A DNA stretch of 32,000 nt from an archaeon (GTDB lineage Archaea; Asgardarchaeota; Thorarchaeia; Thorarchaeales; Thorarchaeaceae). Position numbers and translations under genes: made by a program. Below the pieces are notes generated by a model. It was not told the DNA's origin and made no database searches. It saw nothing but the letters and a program-made list of their open reading frames with translations. Location of the stretch: the NCBI GenBank assembly GCA_024275415.1, contig JAJRZD010000081.1, forward strand, positions 1 through 32,000, written 5' to 3'. This document shows positions 12,296-31,604 of the stretch, piece by piece; the first letter of the stretch is position 1, and each line of letters opens with the position of its first letter.

Positions 12296-13795
12296 TCAGG
12301 GAATGAGAAGTGCAGCTGCTGCATTTGCCAGATTGGTGATAGGGGCAGGAAACCAGAACAGGACAAGTACCAGAATTGCACAGATGCCTACTATGGATAC
12401 GGGAATTCTTGGGAGTGATAGTGGACCTTCTTCACTGGCAGTCCTAAAGTACATGGCACGCACAACTCTGAAATAGTAACCTAATGAGAATGTGACATTA
12501 AGGAAAGCAAACAGACCAAGCCACCAGAGCCCAACCTCCACGGTACTCATGAAGAGTACGAACTTTGGTGTGAATCCTGCCGTGAATGGGATTCCCATGA
12601 GAGATATCATGATAATAGCAAGGAATGCTGCTGCAAGCGGATGTCTTACACTCAAACCATTCAGTTGTTCGTATGTGATCCTCTTCTGAAGCTTGATGGA
12701 CATTGCAAAGACCAAGACGAAAGCGCCTGTCTTCATAATCGCGTGTATGAAAGCAAGGAAGAACGCTGCGGATATCGCGAATTGCGTGTCTACTGCAAAC
12801 CCCACAAAGACGTAACCCATCATCGCGATGCTCGAAAAAGCAAGCATCTTGAGAATGTCCTTCTGTGCCAGAGCAAGAAAGTTGCCAATCACCATCGTGA
12901 GGATTGCAATCACCACGATGAGGGGATACCACTCGAACCTAGCTGCTATGAAACCTACCAGAAGGATCCGCGCTAATGCGCTGATACCAGTCTTCTTCGT
13001 CGCCCCTGCAAGGTAGGCTGTAACACTACCATCAGCGGCAGCATAAGTATCAGGAACCCACATCCAGCCGGGAAATATCCCGATTTTGAAACCAAACGCG
13101 ATGACGAAAAGGGCCATCGCCAATAGGAGTGTATATGCCTGTGATTCCAATGACGCGGGCGCAGCCCAGATAGCAGCTACTCCCACACCGACCTCTGCTA
13201 TCACTGTAGTGCCAAGAGCACCAAAGACCAGAGCAATCCCAAACAGCATGAATATGGTTGAGATGAGTCCCATGACGAAGTACTTTGTTGCACCGTCGAG
13301 CCCCAGCCTATCAGGACTGAGAGCAACAAGGATGTATGTAGGGGTACTCATCAACTCCCATGCCATGAATAATGCTACGAGGTCAGTGGCCATAACTACC
13401 CAAATTGCTCCAGCGAATGAGATGAGGAACAGGAAATTGTATGGCCCCTTGTCCCCACCATACTGAGTGGCGGAAATCATCACAAGAATCGCCACGAGAA
13501 GCACCAGATAGATGAAGAAATCTGCAAATGCATCACGGACGAACAAGCCTCCGAATGACACGCCGTATGTGCTTGAATCAAGCGCAGCTACTTCCAGTAT
13601 GGCCAGAATAACCCCGATGATACTGACTGGCAACGGATTATATCGAAGACCGATGATCAGAGAGAGGATAGAAAACAGGATAAGGGTTAGGACTGGAATC
13701 GAACCGTACCAGTCTGCCGGAAGCTGTACTAATACATCTCTCAGGGGTACTAACATGGCTGCAAGGATATCAGTGAATATGTTGCTTTGTATCAT
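12296..13795 (-). CDS. nuoN: Complex I-like antiporter subunit N
   Basis: AWELMS, GATKYFVMG, FGFKIG, WVPDTY, KMLAFSSIA, FTPKF and YYFRVVRAMY motifs. Confidence 0.92.
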   Translation of the reverse strand: MIQSNIFTDILAAMLVPLRDVLVQLPADWYGSIPVLTLILFSILSLIIGLRYNPLPVSIIGVILAILEVAALDSSTYGVSFGGLFVRDAFADFFIYLVLLVAILVMISATQYGGDKGPYNFLFLISFAGAIWVVMATDLVALFMAWELMSTPTYILVALSPDRLGLDGATKYFVMGLISTIFMLFGIALVFGALGTTVIAEVGVGVAAIWAAPASLESQAYTLLLAMALFVIAFGFKIGIFPGWMWVPDTYAAADGSVTAYLAGATKKTGISALARILLVGFIAARFEWYPLIVVIAILTMVIGNFLALAQKDILKMLAFSSIAMMGYVFVGFAVDTQFAISAAFFLAFIHAIMKTGAFVLVFAMSIKLQKRITYEQLNGLSVRHPLAAAFLAIIMISLMGIPFTAGFTPKFVLFMSTVEVGLWWLGLFAFLNVTFSLGYYFRVVRAMYFRTASEEGPLSLPRIPVSIVGICAILVLVLFWFPAPITNLANAAAALLIP

Positions 13796-15352
13796 TTAGG
13801 GTGAACCTCCTAGCATAAAGGCCACAACACTTTGAGTGAAGTTTAAGACTAGATCAGGCCAGAACCCAAGCAGTATGACAGGAATCATCATGAGTACCGG
13901 CGCTATTAGGTCACTCCGGGATGCCTCATGAATCTCCATCTCGGGATCAGGATCACTAAAGACCATTCGATTCAGTGTCCAAAGTATATACCCGACCGTG
14001 AGAAAGATTCCGAATCCAATAATGCCAGCCCAGATATAGATCGTGACTGCGCCGAACAGTATTAGAGCCTCAGCAATGAATCCGCTGAAACCAGGAAGCC
14101 CAAACGCAGCCAGTGCGGCGAGGATGAAGACAGAGGTCATGTGCGGGGCCTTTGCAAGTAGACCCTTGATCTTAGTGATCTCACGGGTGCCTGCGGCATA
14201 TTTGAGCTGTCCGGCCATGATAAACATCACAGAGATGATGGTTCCATGAGAGAACATCATGAATATGGCACCTTGAATTGCAAGATGTGCAGCACTCTGA
14301 AGAACAGGATCGGAGCTAGCTAGACCAGCGGCCCCAACTGACACACCCAGAAGAACCCAAGACATGTGATTGATTGAGGTATATGCTACCATGGATTTCA
14401 TGTCGGTCTGAGCCATAGCTGTGAATGCCGCATAGATACAGGTGAATACTGCCAGAATCGCAAGAGGAATGCTCAAACGAGCGAACCCTCCAGGAATCAT
14501 CCAGAGACCTAACCTGATGAACGCATAGCCTCCCATCTTCAGCAGGATGCCAGCAAGAATGACAGAACCTGGAGTGGGTGCTTTGACATGCGCCCACGGG
14601 AGCCAATTGTGAAGTGGAAACACGGGGAGCTTGACTCCAGCACCCATGAACACAGCCAGCGCGAACCCGATTTGAATCTCAGGAGAGAGTCCCATGTTCC
14701 GCAGGAGAACCATATTGAAAGTGGGCGTTGGTGCCACGAAGAATAGCACAAAGAATGAGATGACCATGATTGCTGAGCCGAAATGGGTATAGATGACAAA
14801 CTTGACAGCTGCATGCTGTGCTCCTTCCTCACCCCATTTGCCAATGATGAAGAACATGGGTATCAGGACAAGCTCCCAAAAGACAAAGAAGCTGAAAAGG
14901 TCGATGGACATGAAAACCCCCAAGAGTCCTGATTGGAGCATCAGGAAGAACCCGTAGTACATGGACTTGGATTCCTTGATGTGATTGGAGCTTATGGCAG
15001 CAATCAAGACGACCAGATTTGAGAGGATGATCATGACTATCGAAAGTCCATCCACACCAAGCAGGATTTGTAACACTGGGGGATTCTCACCTGTTGCAAG
15101 AGCCGTGATAGTGAACTGCCAGCCCAATGCACCACCAGTGGGGTCATCAAGTTGGATTGCTGGATCGACTATCAGCCCCAGAATGATGGACAGGACGAAC
15201 TCGATGATAACGATGACCATGGTGATAGCTCTTGCTGTCCTTGAACCGAGGATAATCACAGCAAACGCTGCAATCAATGGTAGGAACAGCATAAATGGAA
15301 GGATGCCCAAGGGCAACGCGGAAACGATTGATTGAATGATATCCATCTGCAT
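13796..15352 (-). CDS. nuoM: Complex I-like antiporter subunit M (canonical copy)
   Basis: GVDGLS, FWELVLIPMFF, VKLPVFPLHNWLP, GILLKMGGY, AYTSINHM and GFIAE motifs. Confidence 0.93.
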   Translation of the reverse strand: MQMDIIQSIVSALPLGILPFMLFLPLIAAFAVIILGSRTARAITMVIVIIEFVLSIILGLIVDPAIQLDDPTGGALGWQFTITALATGENPPVLQILLGVDGLSIVMIILSNLVVLIAAISSNHIKESKSMYYGFFLMLQSGLLGVFMSIDLFSFFVFWELVLIPMFFIIGKWGEEGAQHAAVKFVIYTHFGSAIMVISFFVLFFVAPTPTFNMVLLRNMGLSPEIQIGFALAVFMGAGVKLPVFPLHNWLPWAHVKAPTPGSVILAGILLKMGGYAFIRLGLWMIPGGFARLSIPLAILAVFTCIYAAFTAMAQTDMKSMVAYTSINHMSWVLLGVSVGAAGLASSDPVLQSAAHLAIQGAIFMMFSHGTIISVMFIMAGQLKYAAGTREITKIKGLLAKAPHMTSVFILAALAAFGLPGFSGFIAEALILFGAVTIYIWAGIIGFGIFLTVGYILWTLNRMVFSDPDPEMEIHEASRSDLIAPVLMMIPVILLGFWPDLVLNFTQSVVAFMLGGSP

Positions 15353-15353
15353 T

Positions 15354-17675
15354 TTACAGAACCCCCATTGTTATGAGAATCACCAGTATCATTATTCCCA
15401 GACCGAAGATGATGACAGAAACATAGTCATTGATGCGTCCTGTCTGAACGGCTTGACCTGATTCTGAGGCGCCAACACTATGGGTTGATACACCTTCCGC
15501 GAAGCCATCAACGATATGGTCATCAAACCAGCGGACACGCCGCGAGATTTCCTTGGCAGTATCAGCAGACTTGAAGTCAATCCCGTCAATTATCTTGTTA
15601 TCAACCCGGACACGCCACCACTCGGCAGAGTTCAGGTACTTGTTGAGGATCCAGTAATAGAACTCGTTGATATACCACCTGTGTCGCAGGAAATTGTAGA
15701 CCTTGCGCCGTATCCCAGTTTCAGGAACGAATGTGTTGGGCCTGTCAGCATTCTTAATGTAAATGATGTAACCAGGTATGCCACCAAGTGCAAGAGCACC
15801 CAGTGTGATCATGAACGGGACGATGCCAGCCTCACTGAACTTTACAAAAATCATCTCTTGCAAGATGACACCCCATTCTTCCTCAGTCCTGAGAAGGAAG
15901 TTCTGGATGAATGGGAAGACTAGAAATGCGATGATAGTGAACGCCGCCAAAAGATACAGGGGAACCATCATGGCTGGACCCGGATCATGTGGCGTCGAGT
16001 GATGCTCCTCTTCCTCATGTCCTTTGGAGTGATCATCTTCATCAGACCCATCATGATGACCAGACTCGTGACTTTCATGTTCAGTCTTCTCAGGACCATA
16101 GAAGGTCAGTCCCATCAATCTGAAGCTATAGAAGATCGTACATGCAGCTGCGAGAACCGAGAAAAGGAACACTAACCATCCAACAGATATGAACAATGTT
16201 CCTCCGTGAGAGGTAATCTCTTGTTCGACGATCATCAATTCATACGAGTATTCGATGATTGAATCCTTTGACCAGAACCCTGAGAATGGAGGTATCCCAG
16301 CAAGCGCAAGAATGCCAATCCACATGACAGCAAACGTCTTTTTCATGTGCTTTTTCAGACCACCCATTTTCGACACGTACTTCGTGTGGATAGCATGGAT
16401 GACCCCACCAGAAGCAAGAAAGAGAAGTGCCTTGAACGCACCATGTGAAATGATATGCAAGATACTTGATAGATATGCCTTGTCATATGCGATATGAAGC
16501 TCGGTCAGATTCAAGACTTCATGAGCATAAATCCCGTAAAACGCAAGCAGCCCTGCGGCGCCAAGTCCCAACATCATGTAACCTAGTTGACTCAGGGTCG
16601 AGAACGCCAGGATCTGCTTTAGCTCGTTCGAGGCGATACCCATAGTTGCAGTCAGCAAAGCTGTGACCGCACCAATAACAGCTACAACGATGAAGAAGAA
16701 TGTGATCACATCTGCCCCGGAAAGCTGTAGAAGGGATAGTCCGTGCTCTCCACCACCGCCATCTCCTGCTGAAACAGCTTGAGCACTGACTATGGTCAGA
16801 AGGAATCGTGCAGTGATGTAGATACCAGCCTTGACCATCGTTGCTGCGTGGATGAGGGCTGAAACTGAGGTTGGACCAGCCATTGCTTCTGGTAGCCATA
16901 CTTGCAAGGGGGCTTGTCCGGACTTGCCAATCGCTCCCATGAAGATGAGGAGGAATGTAGGAACAAGCATTCCAATCCCAGCCATGACACCCCACCAGTT
17001 TTGAAAGTTCTCGGACATAAGGCTGAAAGAGAAAGTACCTGTGAATGTGAAGAGCAAGAGGATTCCGCCAAGCATGAAAGCATCACCAATCCTTGTGACG
17101 ATGAATGCTTTCGTACCAGAATGCGTGTTGTATTGCCCCTCTGTTTCGAACTGGAGAAGAGGGTTCTTGTATTCTATTGGGTCAGGCTCGACCTCCGGTG
17201 GATTACGCTTGTCATTCCAGAAACCGATGAGTCCATAGGAGCAGAAGCCCATTATCTCCCAGCCGATGAATGCAATGAGAAGGTTATTGCTCAGCACAAG
17301 TGTAAGCATTCCTCCACCAAATGCAAGCATGAGGAAGAAGAATCTGTCGCGGTCCTCTTCATGCGCCATGTATTCGGTGGAGTAGACATAGATGAGAAAA
17401 CTCAGTGTGCTGGCAAGTACTGCCATAATAATGGAAAGAGGGTCAAGGAGCATCTCAAAGTTGATGCCAAGATATTCAATCCAGACCCACGAAGTAGTGC
17501 CAGTAGGATTGTCTGCTTCAGCAAGGAGTGACCAGGATAGTACCATAGTGATTCCCATGATAATCGCAGGAGTCCAGTCTCTGAGCTTCTCACTGAATTT
17601 TCCAACCACTGGAACTAGTAAGGAACCGGCAAGAGGGAGCACCAAGATGAGATAGTAGGGTAAGCCAAATATCAT
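15354..17675 (-). CDS. nuoL: Complex I-like antiporter subunit L with an extended lateral helix
   Basis: GWEIMG, TRIGD, GKSGQAPLQVWLPEAMAGPTSVSALIHAATMVKAG, FSTLSQLGYM, HGAFKALLFL, FWSKD, and C-terminal QTG..DY with a final TM helix; 773 aa. Confidence 0.95.
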   Translation of the reverse strand: MIFGLPYYLILVLPLAGSLLVPVVGKFSEKLRDWTPAIIMGITMVLSWSLLAEADNPTGTTSWVWIEYLGINFEMLLDPLSIIMAVLASTLSFLIYVYSTEYMAHEEDRDRFFFLMLAFGGGMLTLVLSNNLLIAFIGWEIMGFCSYGLIGFWNDKRNPPEVEPDPIEYKNPLLQFETEGQYNTHSGTKAFIVTRIGDAFMLGGILLLFTFTGTFSFSLMSENFQNWWGVMAGIGMLVPTFLLIFMGAIGKSGQAPLQVWLPEAMAGPTSVSALIHAATMVKAGIYITARFLLTIVSAQAVSAGDGGGGEHGLSLLQLSGADVITFFFIVVAVIGAVTALLTATMGIASNELKQILAFSTLSQLGYMMLGLGAAGLLAFYGIYAHEVLNLTELHIAYDKAYLSSILHIISHGAFKALLFLASGGVIHAIHTKYVSKMGGLKKHMKKTFAVMWIGILALAGIPPFSGFWSKDSIIEYSYELMIVEQEITSHGGTLFISVGWLVFLFSVLAAACTIFYSFRLMGLTFYGPEKTEHESHESGHHDGSDEDDHSKGHEEEEHHSTPHDPGPAMMVPLYLLAAFTIIAFLVFPFIQNFLLRTEEEWGVILQEMIFVKFSEAGIVPFMITLGALALGGIPGYIIYIKNADRPNTFVPETGIRRKVYNFLRHRWYINEFYYWILNKYLNSAEWWRVRVDNKIIDGIDFKSADTAKEISRRVRWFDDHIVDGFAEGVSTHSVGASESGQAVQTGRINDYVSVIIFGLGIMILVILITMGVL

Positions 17676-17687
17676 TTCATGATCACC

Positions 17688-19241
17688 TCATGGAGTTGGG
17701 GCTTGGAATGGTATGATGTTCGCAATTTCACTGACAACCGGCACAATGACATCTAGTGCAACACCCGGGAATATCCCAAAGAATACGATAAGGAATCCCA
17801 GAATGATCATCGGGACTGTCATGGAACGCGGCCCTTCGACAACATCCGCAAGTTCTTGAGGGTGCGGGCCTAAGAATACCTTCCATAGGAATCTGAGCAT
17901 GTAGCCTGCACTCAATATCGAACTTAGTACAGCCAGTATACTGAGACCCAGCATCAATGGCTGCACAATGGCTTCACTTCCTGGAGGTGCGGCAGCATGG
18001 AACCCTCCAACGAACATCATCCACTCACTCGCAAATCCAGACAGCGGTGGACTACCTGCAATGCTCATCGCACCGATTGCAGCCATGAATGCCGTAATGG
18101 GCATCTTGTTAGAAAGGCCTCCCATCTCGTCGATGTTACGTAGTCCGGTCTGGTGCATCACTGCTCCAGCAGTCATGAATAGCAAGCCCTTTGAGAATGC
18201 GTGGTTTATTAGATGGAAGAGACCTCCTGATACGCCATAGACCGAGAAGACACCCAGAGCAAAAAGGACATAGCCCATCTGGCTCACAGATGAATACGCA
18301 AGCAATCTCTTGATGTCTTTCTGAACGAGTGCCATGAACCCACCGTAGAACATGGTAATTACACCAATCGCAGCAACATATACCGAAAGGTCAAATGCGG
18401 CAGAACCGAGGGTAATGGTGCCGAACCGTACGAGCGCATATGCGCCAGTTTCAATCATAGCACCTGACAGGAGGACCGAAATGGGCGTAGGAGCCTCAGC
18501 ATGAACGGGAGGGAGCCACCAGTGAATCGGGAACACAGCTAGCTTCACCAGAAATCCTGCAGCGAGTAAGATGAATATGATCTTCAATAGCTCCGATGCA
18601 CCGACATATGACGCAATCATTCCTTGGATGACTGCCAGCTCGAATGTCGTGGCGCCACTGAGGAAATAGAGAAGACCGAAGCCGATAAGGATACAGACAG
18701 CTCCACTCTGAGTGTATAACCAGAACTTGAGAGCGGTTCGTTTCCGGGTTTCAGGAAGTCCCCAGAACAGAATCAGGAAGTAAGAGGGCACCAGCATGAG
18801 TTCCCATGCGATGAAGAACTCGATGAGGTTTGTCGCAAGGGTGACCCATTGCATACCCATAATGAAAAAGAGCTGGTTTGCAAAGAACGTCGGGCGACTG
18901 TGCTCGTGGGATGTATAACCCACTGCATAAACAACTGAAAGGAATCCCAGAATGACTACTGCAAAAGTGATTGGGAACGCGATCCCATCGAGCCTGAGAC
19001 CGAATGCCCCTAAGATGTCGGACCATGCAAGGGTCTCTTGAGCAATGTTATACAAGCGCTCTTCGAACATGACACGGTAGAACGGAGGTAGCATCAGAAC
19101 TACTGCGAGCCCCGATACCAACGCAGCAATCTTTCCTGCGCTTTTTTCCAGCCTGCCTCTCATAAGGTAGATGGCAAGAGCTCCAATAAAGAGCACAGCG
19201 AGAGATGTGCCCATGAATGGAAATTCAAACGCAGTCTGCAT
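17688..19241 (-). CDS. nuoM: Second NuoM-like antiporter subunit (M')
   Basis: AWELMLVPSYFLI, VKLAVFPIHWWLPPVHAEAPTPISVLLSG, KRLLAYSSVSQMGY and GFASEW motifs. An MrpD/HyfF-type origin is not excluded. Confidence 0.75.
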   Translation of the reverse strand: MQTAFEFPFMGTSLAVLFIGALAIYLMRGRLEKSAGKIAALVSGLAVVLMLPPFYRVMFEERLYNIAQETLAWSDILGAFGLRLDGIAFPITFAVVILGFLSVVYAVGYTSHEHSRPTFFANQLFFIMGMQWVTLATNLIEFFIAWELMLVPSYFLILFWGLPETRKRTALKFWLYTQSGAVCILIGFGLLYFLSGATTFELAVIQGMIASYVGASELLKIIFILLAAGFLVKLAVFPIHWWLPPVHAEAPTPISVLLSGAMIETGAYALVRFGTITLGSAAFDLSVYVAAIGVITMFYGGFMALVQKDIKRLLAYSSVSQMGYVLFALGVFSVYGVSGGLFHLINHAFSKGLLFMTAGAVMHQTGLRNIDEMGGLSNKMPITAFMAAIGAMSIAGSPPLSGFASEWMMFVGGFHAAAPPGSEAIVQPLMLGLSILAVLSSILSAGYMLRFLWKVFLGPHPQELADVVEGPRSMTVPMIILGFLIVFFGIFPGVALDVIVPVVSEIANIIPFQAPTP

Positions 19242-19673
19242 CTAACGAAACCTCCTTCCTCTCCACTCCAAAGGCTCTCTGTCGAGCGTTGTAATCTTTT
19301 CAGGGCCATAGATCAGGTCTTCTCGCTCTCCCTCTGCCATATCGACAATTGGAGTGTGGTAGAGGGCATCGAACCTGCAAGCGTCCACACAGAGCCCACA
19401 GAATATACAGCGGGTATAGTCAAAGTAGAGTGCAGCATCCTTCTCGTACATCTTATCTGCCTTGTCAATTCGGATGGCAAGAACTGGACAGGCACGCACA
19501 CATTGAGCACAAGCTGTACAATTCTGACGGACATGTATGTGTCGCCCGCGAGTACGTTCAGGGTAGGGTCTATCCTCGAAGGGGTAGAGGCTAGTAAACG
19601 GTCTCTTGAAGATTTGTCGGAAGATATGCTTCAGTATGGTAAAGACTTCGCCAAGATTTCTAAGGAATCCCAT
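19242..19673 (-). CDS. nuoI: Complex I-like 2x[4Fe-4S] subunit I
   Basis: CTACAQCVRACP and CIFCGLCVDAC; also T.LYPFE and R.RGRH. Confidence 0.93.
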   Translation of the reverse strand: MGFLRNLGEVFTILKHIFRQIFKRPFTSLYPFEDRPYPERTRGRHIHVRQNCTACAQCVRACPVLAIRIDKADKMYEKDAALYFDYTRCIFCGLCVDACRFDALYHTPIVDMAEGEREDLIYGPEKITTLDREPLEWRGRRFR

Positions 19674-19679
19674 CTCATT

Positions 19680-20822
19680 CTAACCTCCCACAAGCAAAAG
19701 TGCCAGTCCAGGCACATAGACAATGGCAAGCATTGCTATTATGACATTCAACATTGATAACGGCAGCAGGTACTTCCAGCAGTATCTCACAATTTGATCC
19801 TGCCTGAGCCTGTGAAACGATGAGCTCACTGTCACAAAGACAAAGAGCATGATCAAGAACTTGATGATGAAGTTCACTGCCCCAGGTAGCCATGGAACCC
19901 CATAGAAGCCTCCAAAGAAGAAGGTCACCATGAGGGCTGAATAGAGCATCTGCTCAGCAAACTCCGCAAAATAGGTAAGTGTGAAATAGACTCCTGAGAA
20001 TTCCGTGCGCCACCCAAAGATGATCTCAGAATCTGCAACAGGAGCATCGAATGGGAACACACCTACAGAGATTATAGATGCAGTCAAGAACGTCGCGAAG
20101 TTGATTGGTAGCAGAAAGATGAACCAGACCGAACTTTGAGCTAGGGCAATACCCATGATGCTGAGAGACCCAGCCAGCATAGCAGGACCCACTGACGACA
20201 TGATCATCGGAATTTCAGCGGCAAATTGATTGTTAGCAGCCCTGAATCCTCCAATAAGTGAGTATTTGGATCCACTTATCCATCCGGCAAGCAAAGCTAT
20301 CACAGGTACTGCTGCAAGGAATGCGAATACGAGCACCAGACTGACAGATAGATCTGCAATGAACCAGACCGTGTCCCAAGGAATGAAAGCGAATGGAACC
20401 AACACCACCACTAAGAGCAGAGATGGCAAGAACCGGTATGCCCACCGATGCGCTTTGTCTGGAATGATGATCTCCTTGGATATCAACTTGATCGCATCAG
20501 CAAAAAGCTGGACTCCACCGTACTTGCCCATGTGCATCGGGCCCCGACGCATCTGGATACGTCCCCAGAGCTTTCGTGTGAACCAGACAAAAAAGATGAG
20601 CCCCATCACAACGAAGATGAGCCCTGGAAATATGACAGCTTTGAACAAGAAGAAGATATTGTCGATGACAAGCGTCCATAGAAGATTGATCACGACCCAT
20701 AGCCAATCATATATCCCATAGATGATTCCTCTAATCACCTCGATGATATTGAATACCCATTGTGGGAGTCCCCTTAGCCAATCTACGAACCATTCGAATT
20801 GCAAGACTGCGCCTCCTGTCAT
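19680..20822 (-). CDS. nuoH: Complex I-like membrane subunit H
   Basis: RKLWGRIQMRRGP, ADAIKLISKE, PFDAPVADSEIIFG, TEFSG and RLRQDQ motifs. Start placed at ATG 20822, overlapping the nuoD stop as TAATG (ORF track 20837). Confidence 0.93.
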   Translation of the reverse strand: MTGGAVLQFEWFVDWLRGLPQWVFNIIEVIRGIIYGIYDWLWVVINLLWTLVIDNIFFLFKAVIFPGLIFVVMGLIFFVWFTRKLWGRIQMRRGPMHMGKYGGVQLFADAIKLISKEIIIPDKAHRWAYRFLPSLLLVVVLVPFAFIPWDTVWFIADLSVSLVLVFAFLAAVPVIALLAGWISGSKYSLIGGFRAANNQFAAEIPMIMSSVGPAMLAGSLSIMGIALAQSSVWFIFLLPINFATFLTASIISVGVFPFDAPVADSEIIFGWRTEFSGVYFTLTYFAEFAEQMLYSALMVTFFFGGFYGVPWLPGAVNFIIKFLIMLFVFVTVSSSFHRLRQDQIVRYCWKYLLPLSMLNVIIAMLAIVYVPGLALLLVGG

Positions 20823-21958
20823 TATCTGTCCCACCACCCCGGATACGGGTCTAGACTTCCGAATATCACAATGAAGTCAGCAAACCTCGCACTTGGAACC
20901 AAGTGCTTCAATGCATAATATGAATGGAAACACGGCCCACGGATCTTGGCTCGATAAGGAGTCTGCGCCTTTTCCAATGTCTTTAACCAAAGCGAAGTGA
21001 TGCCTCTTGCGCCCTCGACTCGGCCATATGCCTCTCCTTCTGGCAAGCGGTTAGCCTTGGCGCGTGCCTTGGGGTCAATAATCGGACCATCGGGAATCTG
21101 TGGAATAAGCTGTTTAATTATGTCCACTGAGGTCTTCACTTCGTTGAATCGCTGAACCATCCTGTCATAGGCATCACTCTCTCCTGGGTGGTCGGGGTGC
21201 TCTAGGATCGGAACCTCCCAGTCCACCATATCATATGCCAGATTCGGATCCGGCTGATCCTTTCTCAAATCCATTGGGATGCCACATGCCTTGATGTTGG
21301 GTCCTGAAAGACCCCAGCGCAAAGCCTCTTTAGCCGAATATTGTCCTACGCCTTCAGTACGCATCCTGAAAAGTGGGCTTTTCATCAACATATCCTCGAA
21401 TTTTGGCATGTTATATTCTAGCACTTGAATGGCTTTCTCCAGTTTTGCCAGAACTTTCTCAGTAAAGTCGAATCGTAATCCTCCAGGAGTGCTAAAATGC
21501 GGCGAGTGTCGCACACCTGTGAGTTCCTCGAAGGTATCCAGAAAGAACTCCCTGTCAACCCAGGGCCAGAGTGTCATCGCAAAGAATCCCATTTCAGCAG
21601 ACAGCTGTCCCCACCAGAATTGATAGGAATGTATCCTGCTGGCCTCCATCATGATCGTCCGGAGCACCTTTGCTCGTTCAGGTACTACTAACCCGGCGAT
21701 CTGCTCTACAGCGCTGATATATGGGTACTCCGCAAGGAAAGCTTCGAGCATACATAATCGCTCAAGGATTGGTGAACCCTGTCGAAAGTTACGATACTCG
21801 AGGCATTTCTCTGCAGACCTGTGAAAATACCCGGCATGAGGATCACACTCCACTATGAAGTCGCCTACAAGTTTCAACTTGGTGGCCCAGCCATGGGCAG
21901 ATACGTGCTGAGGTCCAAACCAGACCTCCACTGTTTCATCAAGGATGTCAGGTGTCAT
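20822..21958 (-). CDS. nuoD: Complex I-like subunit D (no NiFe site)
   Basis: GPQHVSAHG, GYFHRSAEK, GEAYGRVEGARG and PYRAKIRGP motifs, ending DPYPGWWDR. No RxCxxC/DPCxxC pairs. Confidence 0.92.
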   Translation of the reverse strand: MTPDILDETVEVWFGPQHVSAHGWATKLKLVGDFIVECDPHAGYFHRSAEKCLEYRNFRQGSPILERLCMLEAFLAEYPYISAVEQIAGLVVPERAKVLRTIMMEASRIHSYQFWWGQLSAEMGFFAMTLWPWVDREFFLDTFEELTGVRHSPHFSTPGGLRFDFTEKVLAKLEKAIQVLEYNMPKFEDMLMKSPLFRMRTEGVGQYSAKEALRWGLSGPNIKACGIPMDLRKDQPDPNLAYDMVDWEVPILEHPDHPGESDAYDRMVQRFNEVKTSVDIIKQLIPQIPDGPIIDPKARAKANRLPEGEAYGRVEGARGITSLWLKTLEKAQTPYRAKIRGPCFHSYYALKHLVPSARFADFIVIFGSLDPYPGWWDR

Positions 21959-22461
21959 TTCTTAGCACCTCCTTCAGGTCTGGGTTTCCTGACTGGAAGA
22001 CCGGTTTCTGCTTGTCTGCTGCGGTCGGTCTGGAAGCTCTTACGCATCGGGTATTTGCCTACGAGCTCGTCCGGTAAAAGAAGCGGACGCAGGTCAGGAT
22101 GACCCGTGAACATAATTCCGAACATCTCGTGTGTTTCACGTTCGTGCCATTCTAAACCAGAAAAGATGTCACAGCATGCTGGGAGTGAAGGGTTCGAGCC
22201 CTCCAAGTTCACCTTGAGTTGGATGATCATCCGGTCTTTGTGCGACCAGAACATGTAGTTGACCTGGTACTTGTCATCACCCAGATCAACACCGAACGCG
22301 GATTCGGGAATAACCTCTGGGAAAGTTTCATCGACCAAAGTGATGACATCGCGAATTATGTCCTTGCCCACTGTGAACTCGATGTGATGTTCGTTTATCG
22401 TCTTGACATCTATGTCAGGAAATTTGGTGGTGAATGTCCGCACAATCCCTGCTGCATCCAT
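21955..22461 (-). CDS. nuoC: Complex I-like subunit C
   Basis: WHERETHEMFGIMFTGHPDLRPLLLP and YPMRK motifs; overlaps the nuoD start by 4 nt. Confidence 0.93.
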   Translation of the reverse strand: MDAAGIVRTFTTKFPDIDVKTINEHHIEFTVGKDIIRDVITLVDETFPEVIPESAFGVDLGDDKYQVNYMFWSHKDRMIIQLKVNLEGSNPSLPACCDIFSGLEWHERETHEMFGIMFTGHPDLRPLLLPDELVGKYPMRKSFQTDRSRQAETGLPVRKPRPEGGAKK

Positions 22462-22462
22462 C

Positions 22463-22774
22463 TCATTTCACCTCTGCTTGTACTGGACTGCCAAGATCCA
22501 CATGTCCGTACCTGCGGTTGTACAATAGCATAAGAACCAAAGCAAGGGCTGTGTGTGCAGCTGCTATTGCGATCACTAGGATGACAAGTCCTTGAGGAGT
22601 GTAGGAGAAGACTCCGCCGTAGACTGCAAAAGCTACAAGGGCGATGTTCACACCATTCCCCATTATCTCAGCCCCGATAAGGATACGAATCAGGTTCCTT
22701 TTCACTATCATGCCATAAGCACCTAGACCGATGAGCATGAATGCCACAACCAGATACCAACTCAGTGGAACCAT
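22463..22774 (-). CDS. nuoK: Complex I-like subunit K
   Basis: KRNLIRILIGAEIMGNGVN and AIAAAH; 3 TM helices. Confidence 0.9.
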   Translation of the reverse strand: MVPLSWYLVVAFMLIGLGAYGMIVKRNLIRILIGAEIMGNGVNIALVAFAVYGGVFSYTPQGLVILVIAIAAAHTALALVLMLLYNRRYGHVDLGSPVQAEVK

Positions 22775-23394
22775 CAGTTCGTTGCCTCCTCTGTCTTCTC
22801 ATCATCGGGCATTGGGGCCGCCTCGACTCCGAACTCGGCTGTGATGTCCTTCAAGGTCTCTGCCTTTTCCATCTTCATCAGAGCGAGTGTCCCAACCAGT
22901 GTAGTAAGGATGATCAAAGCAATAATTTGAACGTAGAGCCCGTGGGATTGCCAGAGCCATTCCGCCAGTCCTTGTAGACTCTGGGCATATTCCGGCATTC
23001 CTTGAGGGATGTCTGTTGACCATGGAAATACCAAAGCAAGCCCTCCAGACATTGCCATGACGAAAGCAGAAAGAAGCAGCCCTATTTTCCGTGCACGCGG
23101 CGAGGGAAGCACTTCCAGTGTCCGATCCTGTGCTCTGGGAAGAAGCAACACTCCAAATATGATCAATGCACTGATACCACCAGTGTATACCGCTATCTGC
23201 ATCCCTGCTATGAAAGGCGCTTCAAGTAATAGGAAAAGTCCTGCAACGAAGCTTGCCATGACGCCAAAGAAGAAAGCAGCATATACTATGTCCTTGTGCT
23301 CAAGGGCCAGATATCCAAATACCAAGATAATGCCAGCCAATAGGAGGAATTCGACTTGCTCGAATAGCTGCAGGAGTGGGTCTAGTTCTTGCAT
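22774..23394 (-). CDS. nuoJ: Complex I-like subunit J
   Basis: LLEAPFIAGMQIAVYTGGISALIIFGVLL; 5 TM helices. Confidence 0.9.
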   Translation of the reverse strand: MQELDPLLQLFEQVEFLLLAGIILVFGYLALEHKDIVYAAFFFGVMASFVAGLFLLLEAPFIAGMQIAVYTGGISALIIFGVLLLPRAQDRTLEVLPSPRARKIGLLLSAFVMAMSGGLALVFPWSTDIPQGMPEYAQSLQGLAEWLWQSHGLYVQIIALIILTTLVGTLALMKMEKAETLKDITAEFGVEAAPMPDDEKTEEATN

Positions 23395-23405
23395 CTCATT
23401 TCACC

Positions 23406-23837
23406 TCAATGCATGTGCTTAGTTTTCTGGGCTTTCTTGGCTTCATGATAGAGTTCCAGTGTTTCTTTCCCGTCCAGTGCTGCCTGCGGCAGAATCCTCA
23501 TTGAAAAGCTGATGGCTCCCATGATGAGAGCAATGAAGATCAGTGCCTGCCAGAGAATAAGTGCCTCTAGCCTTAGGGTCGAGGCAGAGAGAAGCCAGAG
23601 AAAGGCGCCCATCACGTCGATCACCACGAACAATATCGTATAGACGATGTAGTTGTAAGGGTAGGAAATACGGGCAGGGCCGATTGGATCCTCACCACAT
23701 TCGTACGGGGATGTCTTTGAAGAGTTCTGAAGGACATGCGGTCGTAACACCCAAGAAGCCAGAAGCATCACAATGACAAGAACCACAGCCAGAAGGGCCC
23801 ACACAACTACAGGAATAAAATCCACAAATAGCCTCAT
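23406..23837 (-). CDS. nuoA: Complex I-like subunit A
   Basis: KTSPYECGEDP and FVVIDV motifs; 3 TM helices. Start placed at ATG 23837 after GAGGAGG (ORF track 23879). Confidence 0.92.
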   Translation of the reverse strand: MRLFVDFIPVVVWALLAVVLVIVMLLASWVLRPHVLQNSSKTSPYECGEDPIGPARISYPYNYIVYTILFVVIDVMGAFLWLLSASTLRLEALILWQALIFIALIMGAISFSMRILPQAALDGKETLELYHEAKKAQKTKHMH

Positions 23838-23921
23838 AATCCAGATTCCTCCTCGCTCAGATGAAGGGGTTGATAGCATCTGCGAATAACCTTGGCAATC
23901 CTAGACAGTTTGGAATAGGTG

Positions 23922-24702: not shown

Positions 24703-25194
24703 TTACTCTTTTTCAGTTTCTACCGTTGTAGCTTCTAATTCAAATTCGACATCAGGAGCAACAGGACCATAATGGAGCTTGCTCACATCCATTATCCCTT
24801 CGGTGTATGCTTCGTCATCACGCGTCATCTTCAACATTGCTGCACCACCAGATGCGACGATAGCAGAACCGATTCCCCACGAGGCATACCAGATCGTGTC
24901 AGCTACGTCCCATTGGAATGACACAAGAGTCAGGATAATGAACATGACTGACACAAAAGATGCGATAGATAGAAACAGGTTCTTCATCTTCCCTCGATCG
25001 GGTACGAAATAGCCAAGTAGCAACACCGACAACAGAATGGGGCCACCAAGTAGAAAGGCCAGATTGGAAGTTTCGAAGGCCGCTGACCCTGTGGTCATCT
25101 TGAAGATGAACTCAACAAAATATGCGGTCATCATCACGACTCCAATCCAGAACATGCAATACCTATCTGCGTCCTCATTCAACCTGCGATTCAT
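24703..25194 (-). CDS. Hypothetical 4-TM membrane protein with an acidic tail
   Basis: Four hydrophobic segments. Its start overlaps the stop of the FAD-NuoB gene (ATGA). Confidence 0.8.
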   Translation of the reverse strand: MNRRLNEDADRYCMFWIGVVMMTAYFVEFIFKMTTGSAAFETSNLAFLLGGPILLSVLLLGYFVPDRGKMKNLFLSIASFVSVMFIILTLVSFQWDVADTIWYASWGIGSAIVASGGAAMLKMTRDDEAYTEGIMDVSKLHYGPVAPDVEFELEATTVETEKE

Positions 25195-27146
25195 TGGATC
25201 ATCCCCATTGCATCTTGATTCTCGTATTTCCTCTGCCAGTGCGTTGTACCGGCACGAATCTTGTTCTGAAGGATAAGATGGGCTCTAATGAAATCTACGG
25301 GCTTGGGGGGGCATCCTGGCAGGTATACATCTACAGGCACGACCTTCTCAGGGGGAGTCATCAAGGAATATCCATCCCAGAACAACCCGCCACTGGCCGC
25401 ACATTGCCCGAAGCTTATGACGTATTTTGGTTCGGGCATCTGTTCATAGATACGGCGTAGTCGGGGAGCCATCTTCTTCGTGAGGGAGCCCGCAATCCAC
25501 AGCACATCTGCCTGCCTTGGACCAAATAGAGGAAGCATTCCAAAGCGCTCTATGTCCCAACGGGATGCTACTGCTGCTGCACCGTCCACCATGCAACACC
25601 CAATACCGTACTGTACTGGCCACGGACTATGTGCACGGCCCCATCTCAGCATCCATTTGAGTGGCGGAAGGTTCTGCAACCATTTCAACAGGATAGGTGC
25701 AATTCGCCCAAACCCATTTCGGAAGAGATCATAGCCAATCCACATGAAGTACTTCCCAATTTTAAGGATGAACGGTAACCAGTAGGCAAAGATCTTCCCT
25801 GGATTAGCAATCTCGTTTTTATCGAGTTTCAATTTCGCAGCCCGTATCTTTGCAAGTCTGCGCTCGCCAAAGTATTGCGGAGCATAGTTTGCAAACCAAA
25901 TCCCAATCCCATGGGGGTGTCCACCGTGTCGTTGTGCAATCTTGAATATGACAAAACTCTGGGACCATGAAAGCATGAAGAATCTGCGCCGCTCGTCTTC
26001 AAGGAAGTAGCCCATGATTGTGACACCGTTCTTTGAGGTCACATACCCGTCAATGCCGGCCCTTGCTGACGCCTGCTCGAACTGAAAGTCAGAAAGCACA
26101 GCCTCCAGATTCTCTAATGGAGCAAAGGCCTGCCCGACGACCAATGTGGGCCCTGCCTTCTTCACGCGCATCGGATAGAATCGATCCTTCCATTCGTGGG
26201 CAGCAACATGCTCATCATATACTGTGCCATGATATTGTTCTGTGATGTTGCGAACGACCTCAAAGCCTTCTTCAATCTCCTCCTCTGTCCCTTCGTAAGC
26301 GATGAGGACAGTACCATGATGCACTGGGAATGGAAACGGCTCATCTGAGTCCCAAATCTGCTTCTTGAGGTCAGTGTATTTGGACTCCTCGAACTTGATC
26401 GTATAGGGTAGGGGTCCTTCTTCAATCATCTTCTCCATCGCAAGAACCATTTGATAGTTCTCAGGAAAGCTTACCACGATAGGCTTGACTGGCATAAGGG
26501 GCTTGACCCTAAGGCGAATCTTCGTAATGATGCCCAAGATGCCCTCGGTATCGCAAAAGAGGTCTGTGTCAGTACTGGTTATTATCTTGCCATCAGGCAG
26601 AACCACTTCGAAGCTTAGAACATTGTCATTGATCTTCCCGTATTTCAAGGAGCCAATCCCATCGCCTCCTTGAGCCACCCATCCACCGATAGTGGCTGAC
26701 AACCCAGACGACGGATAGCATCGGAGATCCAGTCCAACTCGGTTCAGTTCGAATTGAAGATTTGCCCAGGAAATGCCTGGTTCCACAAGAACCGTCTGGT
26801 TCGCTTCGTCAATTTCGAGAACATTATCCATCCTGCGCATATCAACAATGACCCCTCCCTTACGAGGGATCGCGCCTCCATACCCACTTGTTCCCGCACC
26901 TCTGGGAATGATAGGAATTTTCTCTTCGTTGGCAATCCTGTATAAAGATTGTATTTCTTCAGGAGTTTCTGGTTGAACAGCTGCATCAGGGTTGTTATTC
27001 ATCATGTAGCCGACCTGTTTGGGTAGTGCACCTACATCAGTAGAGAAAATGACTAACTCATGCTTTGATGTGATCAGCCGGTCGCCAAAAACGTGTGATA
27101 GTTTCTCGAATTGCTTTTTCTTGAGTCCCATCGGAGATGTCTCCAT
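25191..27146 (-). CDS. Fusion of an FAD-binding oxidoreductase (GlcD/D-LDH/VAO fold) to complex I subunit NuoB
   Basis: N-terminal part: PRGAGTSGYGGAIP, ATIGGWVAQGG..SLKYG, EGILGIIT, HGIG and NPGK. C-terminal part: WGRAHSPWP..GCC, PRQADVL..AG, MPEPKYVISFGQCAASGG and VDVYLPGCPP. One continuous ORF; the start may be ATG 27131. Confidence 0.92.
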   Translation of the reverse strand: METSPMGLKKKQFEKLSHVFGDRLITSKHELVIFSTDVGALPKQVGYMMNNNPDAAVQPETPEEIQSLYRIANEEKIPIIPRGAGTSGYGGAIPRKGGVIVDMRRMDNVLEIDEANQTVLVEPGISWANLQFELNRVGLDLRCYPSSGLSATIGGWVAQGGDGIGSLKYGKINDNVLSFEVVLPDGKIITSTDTDLFCDTEGILGIITKIRLRVKPLMPVKPIVVSFPENYQMVLAMEKMIEEGPLPYTIKFEESKYTDLKKQIWDSDEPFPFPVHHGTVLIAYEGTEEEIEEGFEVVRNITEQYHGTVYDEHVAAHEWKDRFYPMRVKKAGPTLVVGQAFAPLENLEAVLSDFQFEQASARAGIDGYVTSKNGVTIMGYFLEDERRRFFMLSWSQSFVIFKIAQRHGGHPHGIGIWFANYAPQYFGERRLAKIRAAKLKLDKNEIANPGKIFAYWLPFILKIGKYFMWIGYDLFRNGFGRIAPILLKWLQNLPPLKWMLRWGRAHSPWPVQYGIGCCMVDGAAAVASRWDIERFGMLPLFGPRQADVLWIAGSLTKKMAPRLRRIYEQMPEPKYVISFGQCAASGGLFWDGYSLMTPPEKVVPVDVYLPGCPPKPVDFIRAHLILQNKIRAGTTHWQRKYENQDAMGMIQ

Positions 27147-27332: not shown

Positions 27333-28556
27333 ATGGAATTTCCTAGTCTCAAAGCATACGGACTCCAAGATATGCCTTTTACATGCGCCCAATGCAGCTT
27401 TTGCCAGGTTGGCAATGGAGCGTGTCCCACATACAAAGTGAAACGCCTTGATAGCTACTCCGGTAAGGGGAAGATGGTGATTGCCCGTAACCTGTTGCAA
27501 GGACGCCTTAGACCATCTGAGGGGCTCGAAGGGCTAAGGGATGCTATCTTCAATTGTACACTGTGTGGTGGGTGTGAAGAAATATGTCAGGTAGATATCC
27601 CCTTTGTGAAGATCTATCAGCTGTTACGACACGAGTTCCTAAAGAGAGACATGTGGCCTCATGGACTTATGATGGCTAGGGACACTCTTCTAAAGACAAA
27701 CAACATCCAGGGACAATCCCAGATGGATCGCATCGAAGGCTGGTCCTATTGGCATCCTGATGAAGATATGGTACTAGACCTCCAAGGAAAGAAAGCCAAG
27801 ACCGCTTTCTTCGTTGGATGTACCTCGTCATTCAAAGGAGTGTCAATTCAGGCAACCATCGCTTCCACTCTCGTTTATGACAAGGCCGGAGTCGATTTTA
27901 CACTTCTGGGCGAGGAGGAATGGTGCTGTGGCGCACCGATGATAATGACGGGAGATTTTGACACTGCTAGGAAGTATGCCATGCACAACATCGAGAAGTT
28001 CCATGAGCTCGGTGTTGAGAGAGTTGTCACAAATTGCCCAGGCTGTTACAAAATGTGGGCTCACGAATATCACGAGTTCTTGGATATTGACCACGGTCTT
28101 GAGATTCTGTACGGTGCCGAATTTCTGATGGAAATCCTTGATGAGAACAAGCTGGATTTCAATACCCCCTTGGATAAGGGCATCACGTTCCATGATGGAT
28201 GTGATGCTGGTAGAAATGCTGGATTCTATGAGGAACCTCGGAAGGTCTTGGAGTACATTCCAGGAATCGAGTTCGAGGAGTTACCGCACAACAAGGCCAA
28301 TAGTTACTGCTGTGGTTCAGGGGGCGTCCTTAGAGCTGTAGACAATGACTTTGCAGTCAAGATAAACGAGCTTAAGGTGAAGGACATTGAAGCCACAAAT
28401 GCTGAAATCGTCGTATCACACTGTCCCTCCTGCGTTGACTTCATGCATAACCAATTGCCCGGTGCGGGCTCAAGCAAGACCTCGAAGGATCTAGTCGTAC
28501 TGGTTGCACAGGCATTGGGACTAGAGTGGGAAGGTCTTGAGGAAATCTATGGCTAG
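27333..28556 (+). CDS. Fe-S oxidoreductase with 2x[4Fe-4S] and two CCG domains (GlcF/HdrD-like)
   Basis: CAQCSFC..CP and CTLCGGCEEIC; FVGC, CCGAP, NCPGC, HDGC, CCGSGG and HCPSC. Start placed at ATG 27333 after GAGGT (the ORF-track start at 27111 overlaps the opposite gene). Confidence 0.9.
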   Translation: MEFPSLKAYGLQDMPFTCAQCSFCQVGNGACPTYKVKRLDSYSGKGKMVIARNLLQGRLRPSEGLEGLRDAIFNCTLCGGCEEICQVDIPFVKIYQLLRHEFLKRDMWPHGLMMARDTLLKTNNIQGQSQMDRIEGWSYWHPDEDMVLDLQGKKAKTAFFVGCTSSFKGVSIQATIASTLVYDKAGVDFTLLGEEEWCCGAPMIMTGDFDTARKYAMHNIEKFHELGVERVVTNCPGCYKMWAHEYHEFLDIDHGLEILYGAEFLMEILDENKLDFNTPLDKGITFHDGCDAGRNAGFYEEPRKVLEYIPGIEFEELPHNKANSYCCGSGGVLRAVDNDFAVKINELKVKDIEATNAEIVVSHCPSCVDFMHNQLPGAGSSKTSKDLVVLVAQALGLEWEGLEEIYG

Positions 28557-29875: not shown

Positions 29876-29901
29876 TCTAATGAGTCTAACAATAAGAGTC
29901 G

Positions 29902-30557: not shown

Positions 30558-31604
30558 TTACATTGCCGGAGGAGGTCGCGTCAGGTTACGGTACTGGATA
30601 GCACAAATCACGACTAGGACTATTCCCGCAATGGCCAGATAGATCAGATTTGATGTAAAACCCTTGAGGATATACCCTGCTGTGAGGCTCAGTGTAATGA
30701 GAAGATGTAGCATGATAGTCGCGGCGTTGGCGGGAACCAACCGATTCGGAGCCTCATACTCTCGCATCATGATTCGTACTCCCAAATAGCCCAACGGAAT
30801 TAACGTCAGAGCGAGGAGCGATTCAAACGCAATCAGCCCACTCACGACACAAACGACAATCCATACGAACACAGCTGCTATAAGAACAGCATAGCCCTTC
30901 GCAGCTTTCTCGCGTCCAAGCCGCACCACAACCGTTCTTTTTCCAGAATCCCTGTCTGCTGCATAGTCCTGAAATTCATTGATATAGAGAATCCCAGCAA
31001 CAAGAAGTGCTGTAGGTATCGACGCAAGTATTGGCTCAAGAAGGATGTTCTGAGCTTGAACGTAGTAGGATCCGAGTACCATCAGAACGCCAAAATTAAG
31101 GCCGATAAATATCTCCCCAATGCCACGCTTCACCAATCTGAACGGAGGTGCGGAGTAGAACAGCCCAGACGCAGCACCTATCATGCCAAAAACAAGGATC
31201 AGGATGCCTCGAGTCAGAGCGAGATATACACCTATCAAACCAGTGATTGCAAAGAAGACCATAGATTCAGCCAGCACCTCACGAGGTGTTAGAAGACCAA
31301 GCTGAATCATCCGACTCCCACCAGTGAAAGGACGGACGAATTCCGTGTTTATATCATCCGAACCCGTGTTCTCTGGAGTGTGGTCGAAATAATCGTTCGA
31401 CACATTGGCTGCAATGTGAAGAAATGCTCCTGCAATGACCGTCAAGAGAAAGACATCAAGCAGGAAAACCCCAGTCGTAGCCCAAGCTATCGCTGTGCCC
31501 AGAAAGACAGGTGAGATAGACGCGGTCAAGAATGGTGCTCTCAATTCCAGAAAGAACGCCTTCTTCTTAGATATTTGCATTGGCTCCTGAATGATTTCCG
31601 TCAT
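30558..31604 (-). CDS. menA: 1,4-dihydroxy-2-naphthoate polyprenyltransferase (UbiA family)
   Basis: ELRAPFLTAS, NVSNDYFD, GGSRMI, YSAPPFRL...GIGE and INEFQDYAADRDSGKRTVVVRLG motifs. Confidence 0.88.
   Translation of the reverse strand: MTEIIQEPMQISKKKAFFLELRAPFLTASISPVFLGTAIAWATTGVFLLDVFLLTVIAGAFLHIAANVSNDYFDHTPENTGSDDINTEFVRPFTGGSRMIQLGLLTPREVLAESMVFFAITGLIGVYLALTRGILILVFGMIGAASGLFYSAPPFRLVKRGIGEIFIGLNFGVLMVLGSYYVQAQNILLEPILASIPTALLVAGILYINEFQDYAADRDSGKRTVVVRLGREKAAKGYAVLIAAVFVWIVVCVVSGLIAFESLLALTLIPLGYLGVRIMMREYEAPNRLVPANAATIMLHLLITLSLTAGYILKGFTSNLIYLAIAGIVLVVICAIQYRNLTRPPPAM

Follow-up and report, generated by a model that had tools for sequence, protein, structure and literature searches.

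The stretch of DNA analysed here (the window) comprises 32,000 nucleotides, positions 1 to 32,000 of the forward strand of contig JAJRZD010000081.1 in the assembly GCA_024275415.1, which comes from an archaeon of the Thorarchaeaceae (Asgardarchaeota, Thorarchaeia; abbreviated here as Thor), and it contains a gene in which a flavoprotein that binds flavin adenine dinucleotide (FAD), an amphipathic tail and NuoB, the complex I subunit with the iron-sulfur (Fe-S) cluster N2, are joined in one polypeptide. This fusion is real, complete and under constraint. To our knowledge, the input modules that complex I homologues exchange are always separate subunits at the far end of the Fe-S chain, whereas in the Thor case the subunit with the last cluster, which also forms the acceptor site, is itself covalently linked to a redox enzyme; the result is a complex I homologue that carries a new redox module, bound to it covalently, in a widespread Asgard group whose energy metabolism is known only from genomes. 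The reading that we tentatively prefer, at a likelihood just short of even, is that the flavoprotein and a neighbouring protein with CCG domains form an FAD-FeS-CCG enzyme that is tethered by the tail to NuoB and exchanges electrons with a prenylquinone at or beside the acceptor site of the pump.

The fused gene and its place in the genome

The gene lies on the reverse strand at 25191..27146 as a single uninterrupted open reading frame (ORF) of 651 aa counted from the first ATG; because all database homologues begin at the equivalent of Met6, the true start is probably at 27131, which would give a product of 646 aa. The protein, of about 72 kDa, opens with an FAD_binding_4 domain (residues 53-190, 26577..26990, reverse strand; 139.8 bits in Pfam over profile positions 1-137 of 139), in which the FAD-binding motifs PRGxGTSGYGGA and GGWxxQGGDGIGSLKYG are invariant across the orthologue alignment, and continues with an FAD-oxidase_C cap or substrate domain (residues 223-452, 25791..26480, same strand; Pfam, 52.1 bits) that terminates in N448-P449-G450-K451 (NPGK). 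Between this part and NuoB stands a conserved tail of 47 residues (453-499, 25650..25790, reverse strand), which is also present in unfused orthologues and contains two stretches of amphipathic character, their hydrophobic moment being 0.5-0.58 where the 95th percentile of the whole protein is 0.45; hydrophobicity analysis of residues 453-499 found no hydrophobic stretch of transmembrane grade.

The NuoB domain (residues 500-651, 25194..25649, reverse strand) carries the N2 ligand cysteines C517-C518 (the tandem CC), C582 and C612, which align with those of NdhK and Nqo6 and are conserved in the orthologues. It is matched by Oxidored_q6 (PF01058) over residues 518-622 with 84.2 bits (cut-off 27), and passes both TIGR01957 nuoB_fam (172.9 bits against a cut-off of 142.7, residues 498-632) and NF005012 (180.2 against 116). 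The solved structures nearest to the C-terminal ~150 residues are NuoB/NdhK/Nqo6 (E 1e-43), followed by MbhJ (5e-27) and HycG (4e-24), and by these family matches the C-terminal part reads as an ordinary NuoB, the N2-cluster subunit. The sequence-only reading of the window had described one 651-aa ORF with an FAD domain ending in NPGK, an amphipathic linker and a NuoB with CC, C and C, and the intact ORF with its Pfam and TIGR01957 matches bears this description out. The likeness to canonical NuoB/Nqo6/PSST/NdhK lies in those C-terminal 150 residues (E 1e-43) with their tandem Cys, and in the fact that this is the sole gene of its kind and stands beside the nuo operon; the Thor fusion differs in its 500-residue N-terminal flavoprotein and tail, in being transcribed apart from nuoA and divergently from the gene of the CCG protein, and in a partner NuoD without Tyr87.

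That the fusion is an artefact of assembly or gene calling, or else a decaying gene, is scarcely credible. In a survey of 87 species genomes of the Thor class, whose genera are numbered g1-g17, about 50 genomes, all in genera g1-g12, carry an uninterrupted full-length fusion at 74-88% identity, and in one of them (G010) it stands on the genome's single contig; a few species genomes (G017, G022, G023 and G024) do show an internal stop or a split ORF, as a decaying gene would, but these stand against the intact copies in some 50 independent assemblies. In addition, 47 database clusters, at 74-100% identity and on contigs of up to 3.16 Mb, share the three-domain architecture, and all but one of the named clusters with the fusion are labelled Thorarchaeota. 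The combination of FAD_binding_4, FAD-oxidase_C and Oxidored_q6 that the first reading had singled out is therefore a recurrent one, and the possibility it had raised of a misassembled junction is answered by the same independent genomes. The mean pairwise identity among fused orthologues is 72-74% in the FAD domain, 80% in the tail and 89% in NuoB; the junction region thus ranks second in conservation within the protein, which argues against decay, and as the tail is more conserved than the FAD domain it is probably a functional element and no mere spacer. The lack of any other NuoB in the genome argues in the same direction.

This last point follows from the genome as a whole (3.5 Mb, 92.9% complete). 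By Pfam, the window holds on its reverse strand, at 12296..23879, the genes nuoA-J-K-C-D-H-I together with four antiporter-like genes (517, 773, 518 and 499 aa), and this operon has no nuoB, E, F or G. Genome-wide, no second nuoC, nuoD or nuoH was found and NuoF (Complex1_51K) had no match, while the four Oxidored_q6 genes elsewhere in the genome encode small subunits of group-3 hydrogenases, which have CxxC motifs but lack the CC pair. Because these other genes are hydrogenase small subunits, the fused gene appears to be the only possible NuoB of the genome's only complex I-like enzyme, and the expectation that no stand-alone nuoB would be found in the genome has held; NuoD orthologues, moreover, occur in genera g1-g12, the same genera as the fusion.

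A companion claim, that the operon lacks both nuoB and any EFG or FpoF module, stands for the operon itself, which has neither B nor E, F or G, and has to be qualified for the genome, since an orphan FpoF/FqoF-like gene of 356 aa (Fer4 with 2x[4Fe-4S], FrhB_N and FrhB_C) exists on contig C66 (G000:C66:30691-31761; L033:4692-5762). It has no hydrogenase or formate dehydrogenase next to it. All 17 genera of the class have this gene, those that lack the complex among them, so that its distribution gives no support to a role as the input of the pump. The genome has two copies of CofE, and no CofH was found in it. With Fpo and Fqo, which use FpoF/FqoF, and with enzymes that use NuoEFG, the Thor system shares a flavin redox module attached to a complex I core, and its genome also holds the FpoF-like orphan; it differs in that the known modules are separate subunits feeding the NuoI/NuoG end, none of them fused to NuoB, and in that the Thor FpoF-like gene is found in genera without the complex as well.

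As to the origin of the fusion, exactly one of 1.84 billion cluster representatives has it, and no second, independent FAD-NuoB fusion occurs among the best 150 matches of that library, a range within which another such protein would be expected to fall, so that the fusion is probably a lineage-specific invention. In genus g14, represented by two species genomes together with the database proteins P0051 and P0052, the orthologue is unfused, measures 498-503 aa at 57% identity, retains the whole tail and ends right after 'PPLKW'; sequence comparison found no recognisable derivation of this end from NuoB. In a tree of the FAD domain the fused and unfused Thor proteins form one clade (support 100/100), but monophyly of the fused set is supported at 78/85 only, too little to tell a fission in g14 from a fusion in g1-g12. 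The nearest free-standing NuoB (58% identity) is encoded on a metagenomic contig on which nuoA-nuoB is divergent from nuoJ-K-C-D-H-I-antiporter, with genes for a geranylgeranyl reductase (GGR), a polyprenyl synthase and UbiA close by; because it occupies the same unusual type of operon, the free NuoB is best taken as the older state of this type of complex and the fusion as derived. The CCG protein of that locus (L034) is a paralogue, 25% identical.

A search of the literature, from which many subscription papers were out of reach, found no description of a fusion between NuoB and a flavoprotein, nor any treatment of Thorarchaeota together with NuoB, and the fusion is apparently undescribed, as had been supposed from the sequence. 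The closest accounts concern other Asgard groups: Appler et al. (bioRxiv 2024.07.04.601786) modelled Heimdall complex I-like enzymes without NuoEFG and do not mention the fusion, and Sun et al. (PMC9723677) report Dld genes adjoining HdrD in Sif- and Jordarchaeia.

The flavoprotein, its predicted CCG partner and their relatives

The nearest solved relatives of the FAD part are mouse LDHD (D-lactate dehydrogenase) and LctD (E 2e-27). The metal-binding His/His/Glu of D-2-hydroxyacid dehydrogenases is, in alignment to mouse LDHD, replaced by Y368, V375 and P411, while the next His (H412) is kept; we take the ligands of the mouse enzyme to be H398, H405 and E442, and the PDB pair 8jdb/8jdc differs at H405. 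The protein also fails the GlcD equivalog test (TIGR00387, 154 bits against a cut-off of 567.9) and scores 95 bits with the YdiJ model, whose cut-off is 1350. Because the metal triad is absent and the equivalog scores fall far below their cut-offs, the N-terminal part is most probably a GlcD-fold flavoprotein that is no canonical 2-hydroxyacid dehydrogenase.

Upstream of the fused gene, and transcribed divergently from it, lies the gene of an HdrD/GlcF-like CCG protein (27333..28556, forward strand; 407 aa from Met75 of the ORF that starts at 27111) with two ferredoxin-type Cys motifs and two complete CCG domains. Its Thor orthologues, 68-85% identical, are directly divergent from the fusion or about 4 kb away, and all 18 cluster cysteines are invariant among them; the genome has 15 loci for CCG proteins in all. 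The closest relatives of the flavoprotein outside Thor (~40% identity) are proteins of 870-1050 residues in which the FAD domain is followed by Fer4 and CCG in one chain. One of these, P0054, is 40% identical to the FAD domain, likewise without the metal triad, while its C-terminal half matches the CCG neighbour at 30% identity (E 3e-53); in other relatives the FAD and CCG genes are adjacent.

Prediction of a complex between residues 1-500 of the fusion, that is the FAD part and tail (alignment of 29 sequences), with an FAD ligand, and the CCG protein (alignment of 7) gave an interface score (ipSAE) of 0.91 in 3/3 runs, against 0.00 for the best of three controls. This mark is reached by 58/80 solved complexes and 2/110 mismatched pairs, counts that serve as a rough calibration only, custom alignments and a riding FAD ligand having been used here. 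The runs share at least 95% of their contacts, with a partner pLDDT of 91, and the predicted interface brings loops 84-86, 147-151 and 323-335 of the FAD domain against residues 13-30 and 84-88 of the CCG protein, which hold its two ferredoxin-type Cys motifs; the tail lies outside it. The model thus supports a pairing of the FAD domain with the CCG protein in a two-protein enzyme in which electrons would pass between FAD, 2x[4Fe-4S] and the CCG clusters in that order. Such an enzyme would share with YdiJ, which in E. coli is a D-2-hydroxyglutarate dehydrogenase (PMC9504171), and with the Dld and GlcDF dehydrogenases of FAD-FeS-CCG type the FAD_binding_4 and FAD-oxidase_C domains, the ferredoxin-type dicluster and the two CCG domains, and would differ from them in being split into two genes, in having Tyr/Val/Pro in place of His/His/Glu, and in its fusion to NuoB.

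The unfused orthologue of genus g14 bears on whether this pair depends on complex I. There the flavoprotein adjoins a CCG orthologue (64-66% identity) and a gene for MenA, with a co-directional order MenA-CCG-FAD in G076, and in a related assembly, the one that carries P0051, a polyprenyl synthase and GGR also stand beside the flavoprotein. No orthologue of the Thor NuoD was found in the g14 genomes, only homologues of ~31% identity, and the one of these that was aligned has intact CxxC motifs and is a true NiFe group-4 large subunit. The flavoprotein is accordingly not restricted to genomes with the complex, and because g14 has the pair and the tail without an orthologous complex I, the flavoprotein/CCG pair seems to have a function of its own and to be able to work without complex I.

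More distant members of the FAD subfamily widen the picture. One archaeal relative (L029:5758-12657; 40% identical, the first tail helix included) is joined to an NrfD/PsrC anchor in a protein of 867 aa, and has as neighbours two multihaem cytochromes, an NrfC-like Fe-S protein, a CCG protein and UbiE; by its domain content it would be a second, independent attachment of this flavoprotein to a quinone-interacting membrane complex. Another relative, 43% identical (L030), is flanked by UbiD and a 4HBT thioesterase, and 3/7 of the sampled contexts of the subfamily have a CCG partner and no quinone genes.

A more remote protein of the same FAD-Fer4-CCG architecture, P0251 (1391 aa, 29% identity), carries three glycine-cleavage H-protein (lipoyl carrier) domains in addition to FAD, Fer4 and CCG, and hints that some enzymes of this architecture may act on a protein-bound disulfide. 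The present genome also has a second flavoprotein/CCG set, which lies beyond the window and has a GlcD/E/F-like layout (G000:C62:34098-38934; L020:2098-6934), with FAD proteins of 581 and 502 aa, a 125-aa ORF and a 405-aa CCG protein.

Proposed coupling of the flavoprotein enzyme to the pump

A MenA-type 1,4-dihydroxy-2-naphthoate prenyltransferase is encoded in the window at 30558..31604 on the reverse strand (TIGR00751, 113.4 bits against a cut-off of 102.15), and in at least 20 genomes, spread over many genera, a distance of 2-9 kb separates MenA from the fusion. Past the window, the same contig has a polyprenyl synthase, a second GlcD/GlcE/GlcF-like cluster, a geranylgeranyl-reductase-like gene and mutS, and a UbiE/MenG-type methyltransferase gene is present in the genome. 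Between the CCG gene and MenA, at 28604-30387 on the forward strand, are genes for a fusion of DUF7530 with a PNPOx-like domain (423 aa) and a PNPOx/F420-type protein (161 aa).

This neighbourhood, together with the relatives fused to Fer4-CCG and, in one case, to NrfD, points to coupling at the quinone level. In the mechanism that we propose, the flavoprotein and the CCG protein would form a self-contained redox enzyme of split YdiJ-type architecture, with FAD, 2x[4Fe-4S] and CCG clusters in series. The amphipathic tail would tie this enzyme to the N-terminus of NuoB, which we take, from the Thermus structure, to lie close to the membrane interface of the Q module, and electrons would pass between the enzyme and a prenylquinone made by MenA, at or next to the quinone site of the pump; the enzyme would not feed cluster N2 directly. 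The pump itself, with four antiporter modules and no NuoEFG, would be driven by a low-potential donor such as ferredoxin; alternatively, it might run backwards on the ion gradient and lift the electrons of the enzyme to ferredoxin. That the coupling is at the quinone level, which way the electrons run and what drives the pump are inferences on our part. The energetics are in keeping with a donor of this kind: with 2-hydroxyacid/2-oxoacid couples at about -190 mV and menaquinone at about -75 mV, arithmetic from established potentials gives some 22 kJ per electron pair for transfer from a 2-hydroxyacid couple to menaquinone and some 75 kJ from ferredoxin to menaquinone, the reverse costing as much, and because ~22 kJ is too little, a lactate-level donor cannot drive four antiporter modules.

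Several points weigh against this scheme. The complex of the flavoprotein with the CCG protein is a prediction and no measurement, and CCG proteins can also act on disulfides rather than quinones. Quinone genes are found in 4/7 of the sampled contexts of the FAD subfamily and not in all of them. In this genome, taken as 93% complete, neither the futalosine nor the classical route to a naphthoquinone head group was found, with no MqnA/D, no MenD, and MenB matches below the cut-off, which makes the prenylquinone a putative carrier. Finally, neither a structure nor a model shows where the FAD/CCG module sits with respect to the quinone cavity and N2: a whole-protein AlphaFold2 prediction with 29 orthologues folded the FAD domain well but gave the NuoB part a pLDDT of 26-49, too low to read the orientation of the domains or the FAD-to-N2 distance.

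The same neighbourhood admits a different explanation, in which the pair makes, modifies or maintains the prenylquinone, or helps the complex to assemble, and rides on NuoB for proximity; we regard this as improbable. It would account for the proximity of MenA, a polyprenyl synthase and GGR in Thor, of UbiE at L029 and of UbiD with the 4HBT thioesterase at L030, as well as for a genome in which no known head-group pathway was found and a flavoprotein in which the metal triad of 2-hydroxyacid dehydrogenases is absent. It would also resemble the VAO-family enzyme GLDH on an assembly intermediate of plant complex I (PDB 7a24, PMC7447434), where a FAD_binding_4 flavoenzyme is likewise physically attached to complex I, and GLDH (7a24_z) is a distant FAD_binding_4 relative (E 1e-10) of the Thor flavoprotein. 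However, GLDH is unfused and acts as an assembly factor on the membrane arm, at the opposite side of the membrane; fusions to Fer4-CCG and NrfD are typical of respiratory dehydrogenases; the 3/7 contexts without quinone genes are unexplained by such a role; and MenA occurs in g13 and g15, genera without an orthologue of the flavoprotein, so that quinone synthesis is independent of it.

A further point against the preferred, quinone-coupled enzyme comes from NuoD (20822..21958, reverse strand), in which His38 is kept, Asp139 is replaced by Glu and the quinone-binding Tyr87 by Met, with a Cys at the position of Asp86 (ERLCMLE), so that a canonical quinone site is not assured. The position of Tyr87 is Met or Leu in 8/8 aligned Thor orthologues, and none of the aligned sequences lacks the Cys at the Asp86 position. 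Among solved structures this NuoD matches MbsL of the sulfane-reducing MBS complex best (1.6e-61; Nqo4, 2.9e-56), and elsewhere Y87 is present in Fpo, missing in Mbx-type complexes and replaced in the NuoD of Sulfolobus (PMC4758237). The acceptor of this complex may therefore not be a standard quinone. Because the relative with the free NuoB likewise has Met at position 87, this residue seems to belong to the clade and not to the fusion.

A further alternative, which we hold to be unlikely, though less so than a role in quinone synthesis or assembly, is direct wiring of the FAD-FeS-CCG head into the Fe-S chain of the pump. As an input, electrons would pass from a substrate to FAD, the CCG protein, N6/N2 and a carrier; as an output, they would pass from ferredoxin to NuoI, N2 and the CCG protein and then to FAD or a CCG site and a soluble acceptor, much as in the association of an Fpo-like complex with HdrD proposed for Methanomassiliicoccales. 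Such wiring would suit an operon with no input module of its own, a fusion that by the predicted complex would link an HdrD-like protein through the FAD domain to the N2 subunit, and a NuoD in which the missing Tyr87 and the invariant Cys next to the N2 site suggest a non-canonical acceptor site; an output from ferredoxin would, in addition, suit a high-stoichiometry pump energetically. It is opposed by the unfused orthologue, which appears to work without complex I, by the Met87 of the free-NuoB relative, which is not tied to the fusion, by the synteny with MenA, which indicates a lipid carrier, and, for the input version, by a lactate-level donor that cannot pay for four pump modules.

The sequence-only reading had committed itself to one form of this idea, with the flavoenzyme as a new electron-input module hard-wired to N2, and as written that claim is not supported. 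An unfused orthologue of 57% identity, with the same tail and the same CCG and MenA neighbours, occurs in a genus without an orthologous complex I; in the predicted complex the ferredoxin-type domain of the CCG protein occupies the partner surface of the FAD domain, and the modelled electron route leads from the flavin into that protein and not into NuoB; the join is at the N-terminus of NuoB, through a conserved amphipathic element, and no contact of the FAD domain with the N2 site could be modelled, the pLDDT of NuoB being 26-49 in AlphaFold2; and the fusions of relatives to Fer4-CCG and NrfD point to the quinone level. The FpoF-like orphan also exists, though it does not track the complex across genera. 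The strictest form of direct exchange, in which the FAD-FeS-CCG head would swap electrons with N2 or the acceptor site of the four-pump complex I with no free quinone pool involved, is rather more doubtful still. If it were true, the system would link ferredoxin and an organic or thiol substrate through one hard-wired, ion-coupled oxidoreductase, which could work forward, as a terminal reductase, or in the opposite sense, by reverse electron transport. Complex I-type energy converters would then include a new class, found in the archaeal relatives of eukaryotes, and docking of HdrD-like proteins on a head-less complex I would have its first genetic proof.

A close parallel is the Fpo-like 'head-less' complex with HdrD proposed for Methanomassiliicoccales (summarised in PMC4758237), with which the Thor system has in common a complex I homologue whose operon lacks NuoEFG and FpoF and an association with an HdrD-like CCG protein. 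The association in the methanogens is a hypothesis without genetic linkage, whereas the Thor CCG protein is predicted to bind a domain that is joined to NuoB; the Thor system also has an added flavoprotein and adjacent genes of quinone synthesis. In this respect the fusion is hard genetic evidence for a flavoprotein/HdrD-like enzyme on a head-less complex I, which had previously been proposed only for methanogens.

Other genes of the window

The gene that follows the fusion, and whose start overlaps the fusion stop, encodes a membrane protein of 163 aa (24703..25194, reverse strand) that belongs to no known family; it has three to four hydrophobic helices and an acidic tail, and no match in Pfam or NCBIfam. 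It follows the fusion in 12/12 other Thor loci examined, with 30-56% identity, and is absent beside the unfused orthologue, and it may be a new subunit of the complex. Between this gene and nuoA lies a short gap with a membrane ORF on the opposite strand. Together, the 72-kDa fusion, the CCG partner and the 163-aa protein make a defined target for cryogenic electron microscopy and enzymology, one from which it could be learned how organic redox reactions are linked in anaerobes to the pumping of ions or to reverse electron flow.

The four antiporter-like subunits of the operon (12296-19241, reverse strand), which include a NuoL of 773 aa, amount to a 2M-type layout in an archaeon. In 2M-type complex I a second NuoM is combined with a lengthened NuoL (PMC9040806, PMC6606698), and the Thor operon agrees with this in its four Proton_antipo_M proteins and its 773-aa NuoL; the described cases differ in being bacterial and in having an ordinary NuoB, and the gene order in Thor is A-J-K-C-D-H-I-M'-L-M-N.

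At 9799-11220 on the reverse strand is a gene for a multihaem cytochrome c of 473 aa with NrfA/c554-like motifs and a PGF-CTERM-like anchor at its end, and a 59-aa ORF just downstream (9461-9640, reverse strand) repeats the anchor sequence. Genes for ccmABCE and a ccmF-like protein are found at 4-7111 of the window, and this Asgard genome appears to export c-type cytochromes. Also in this part of the window, at 3345-5000 on the forward strand, is a gene for a HEAT/armadillo-repeat protein of 551 aa, which has sub-threshold matches to adaptin N-terminal and importin repeat families and may be a eukaryote-like repeat protein of Asgard archaea.

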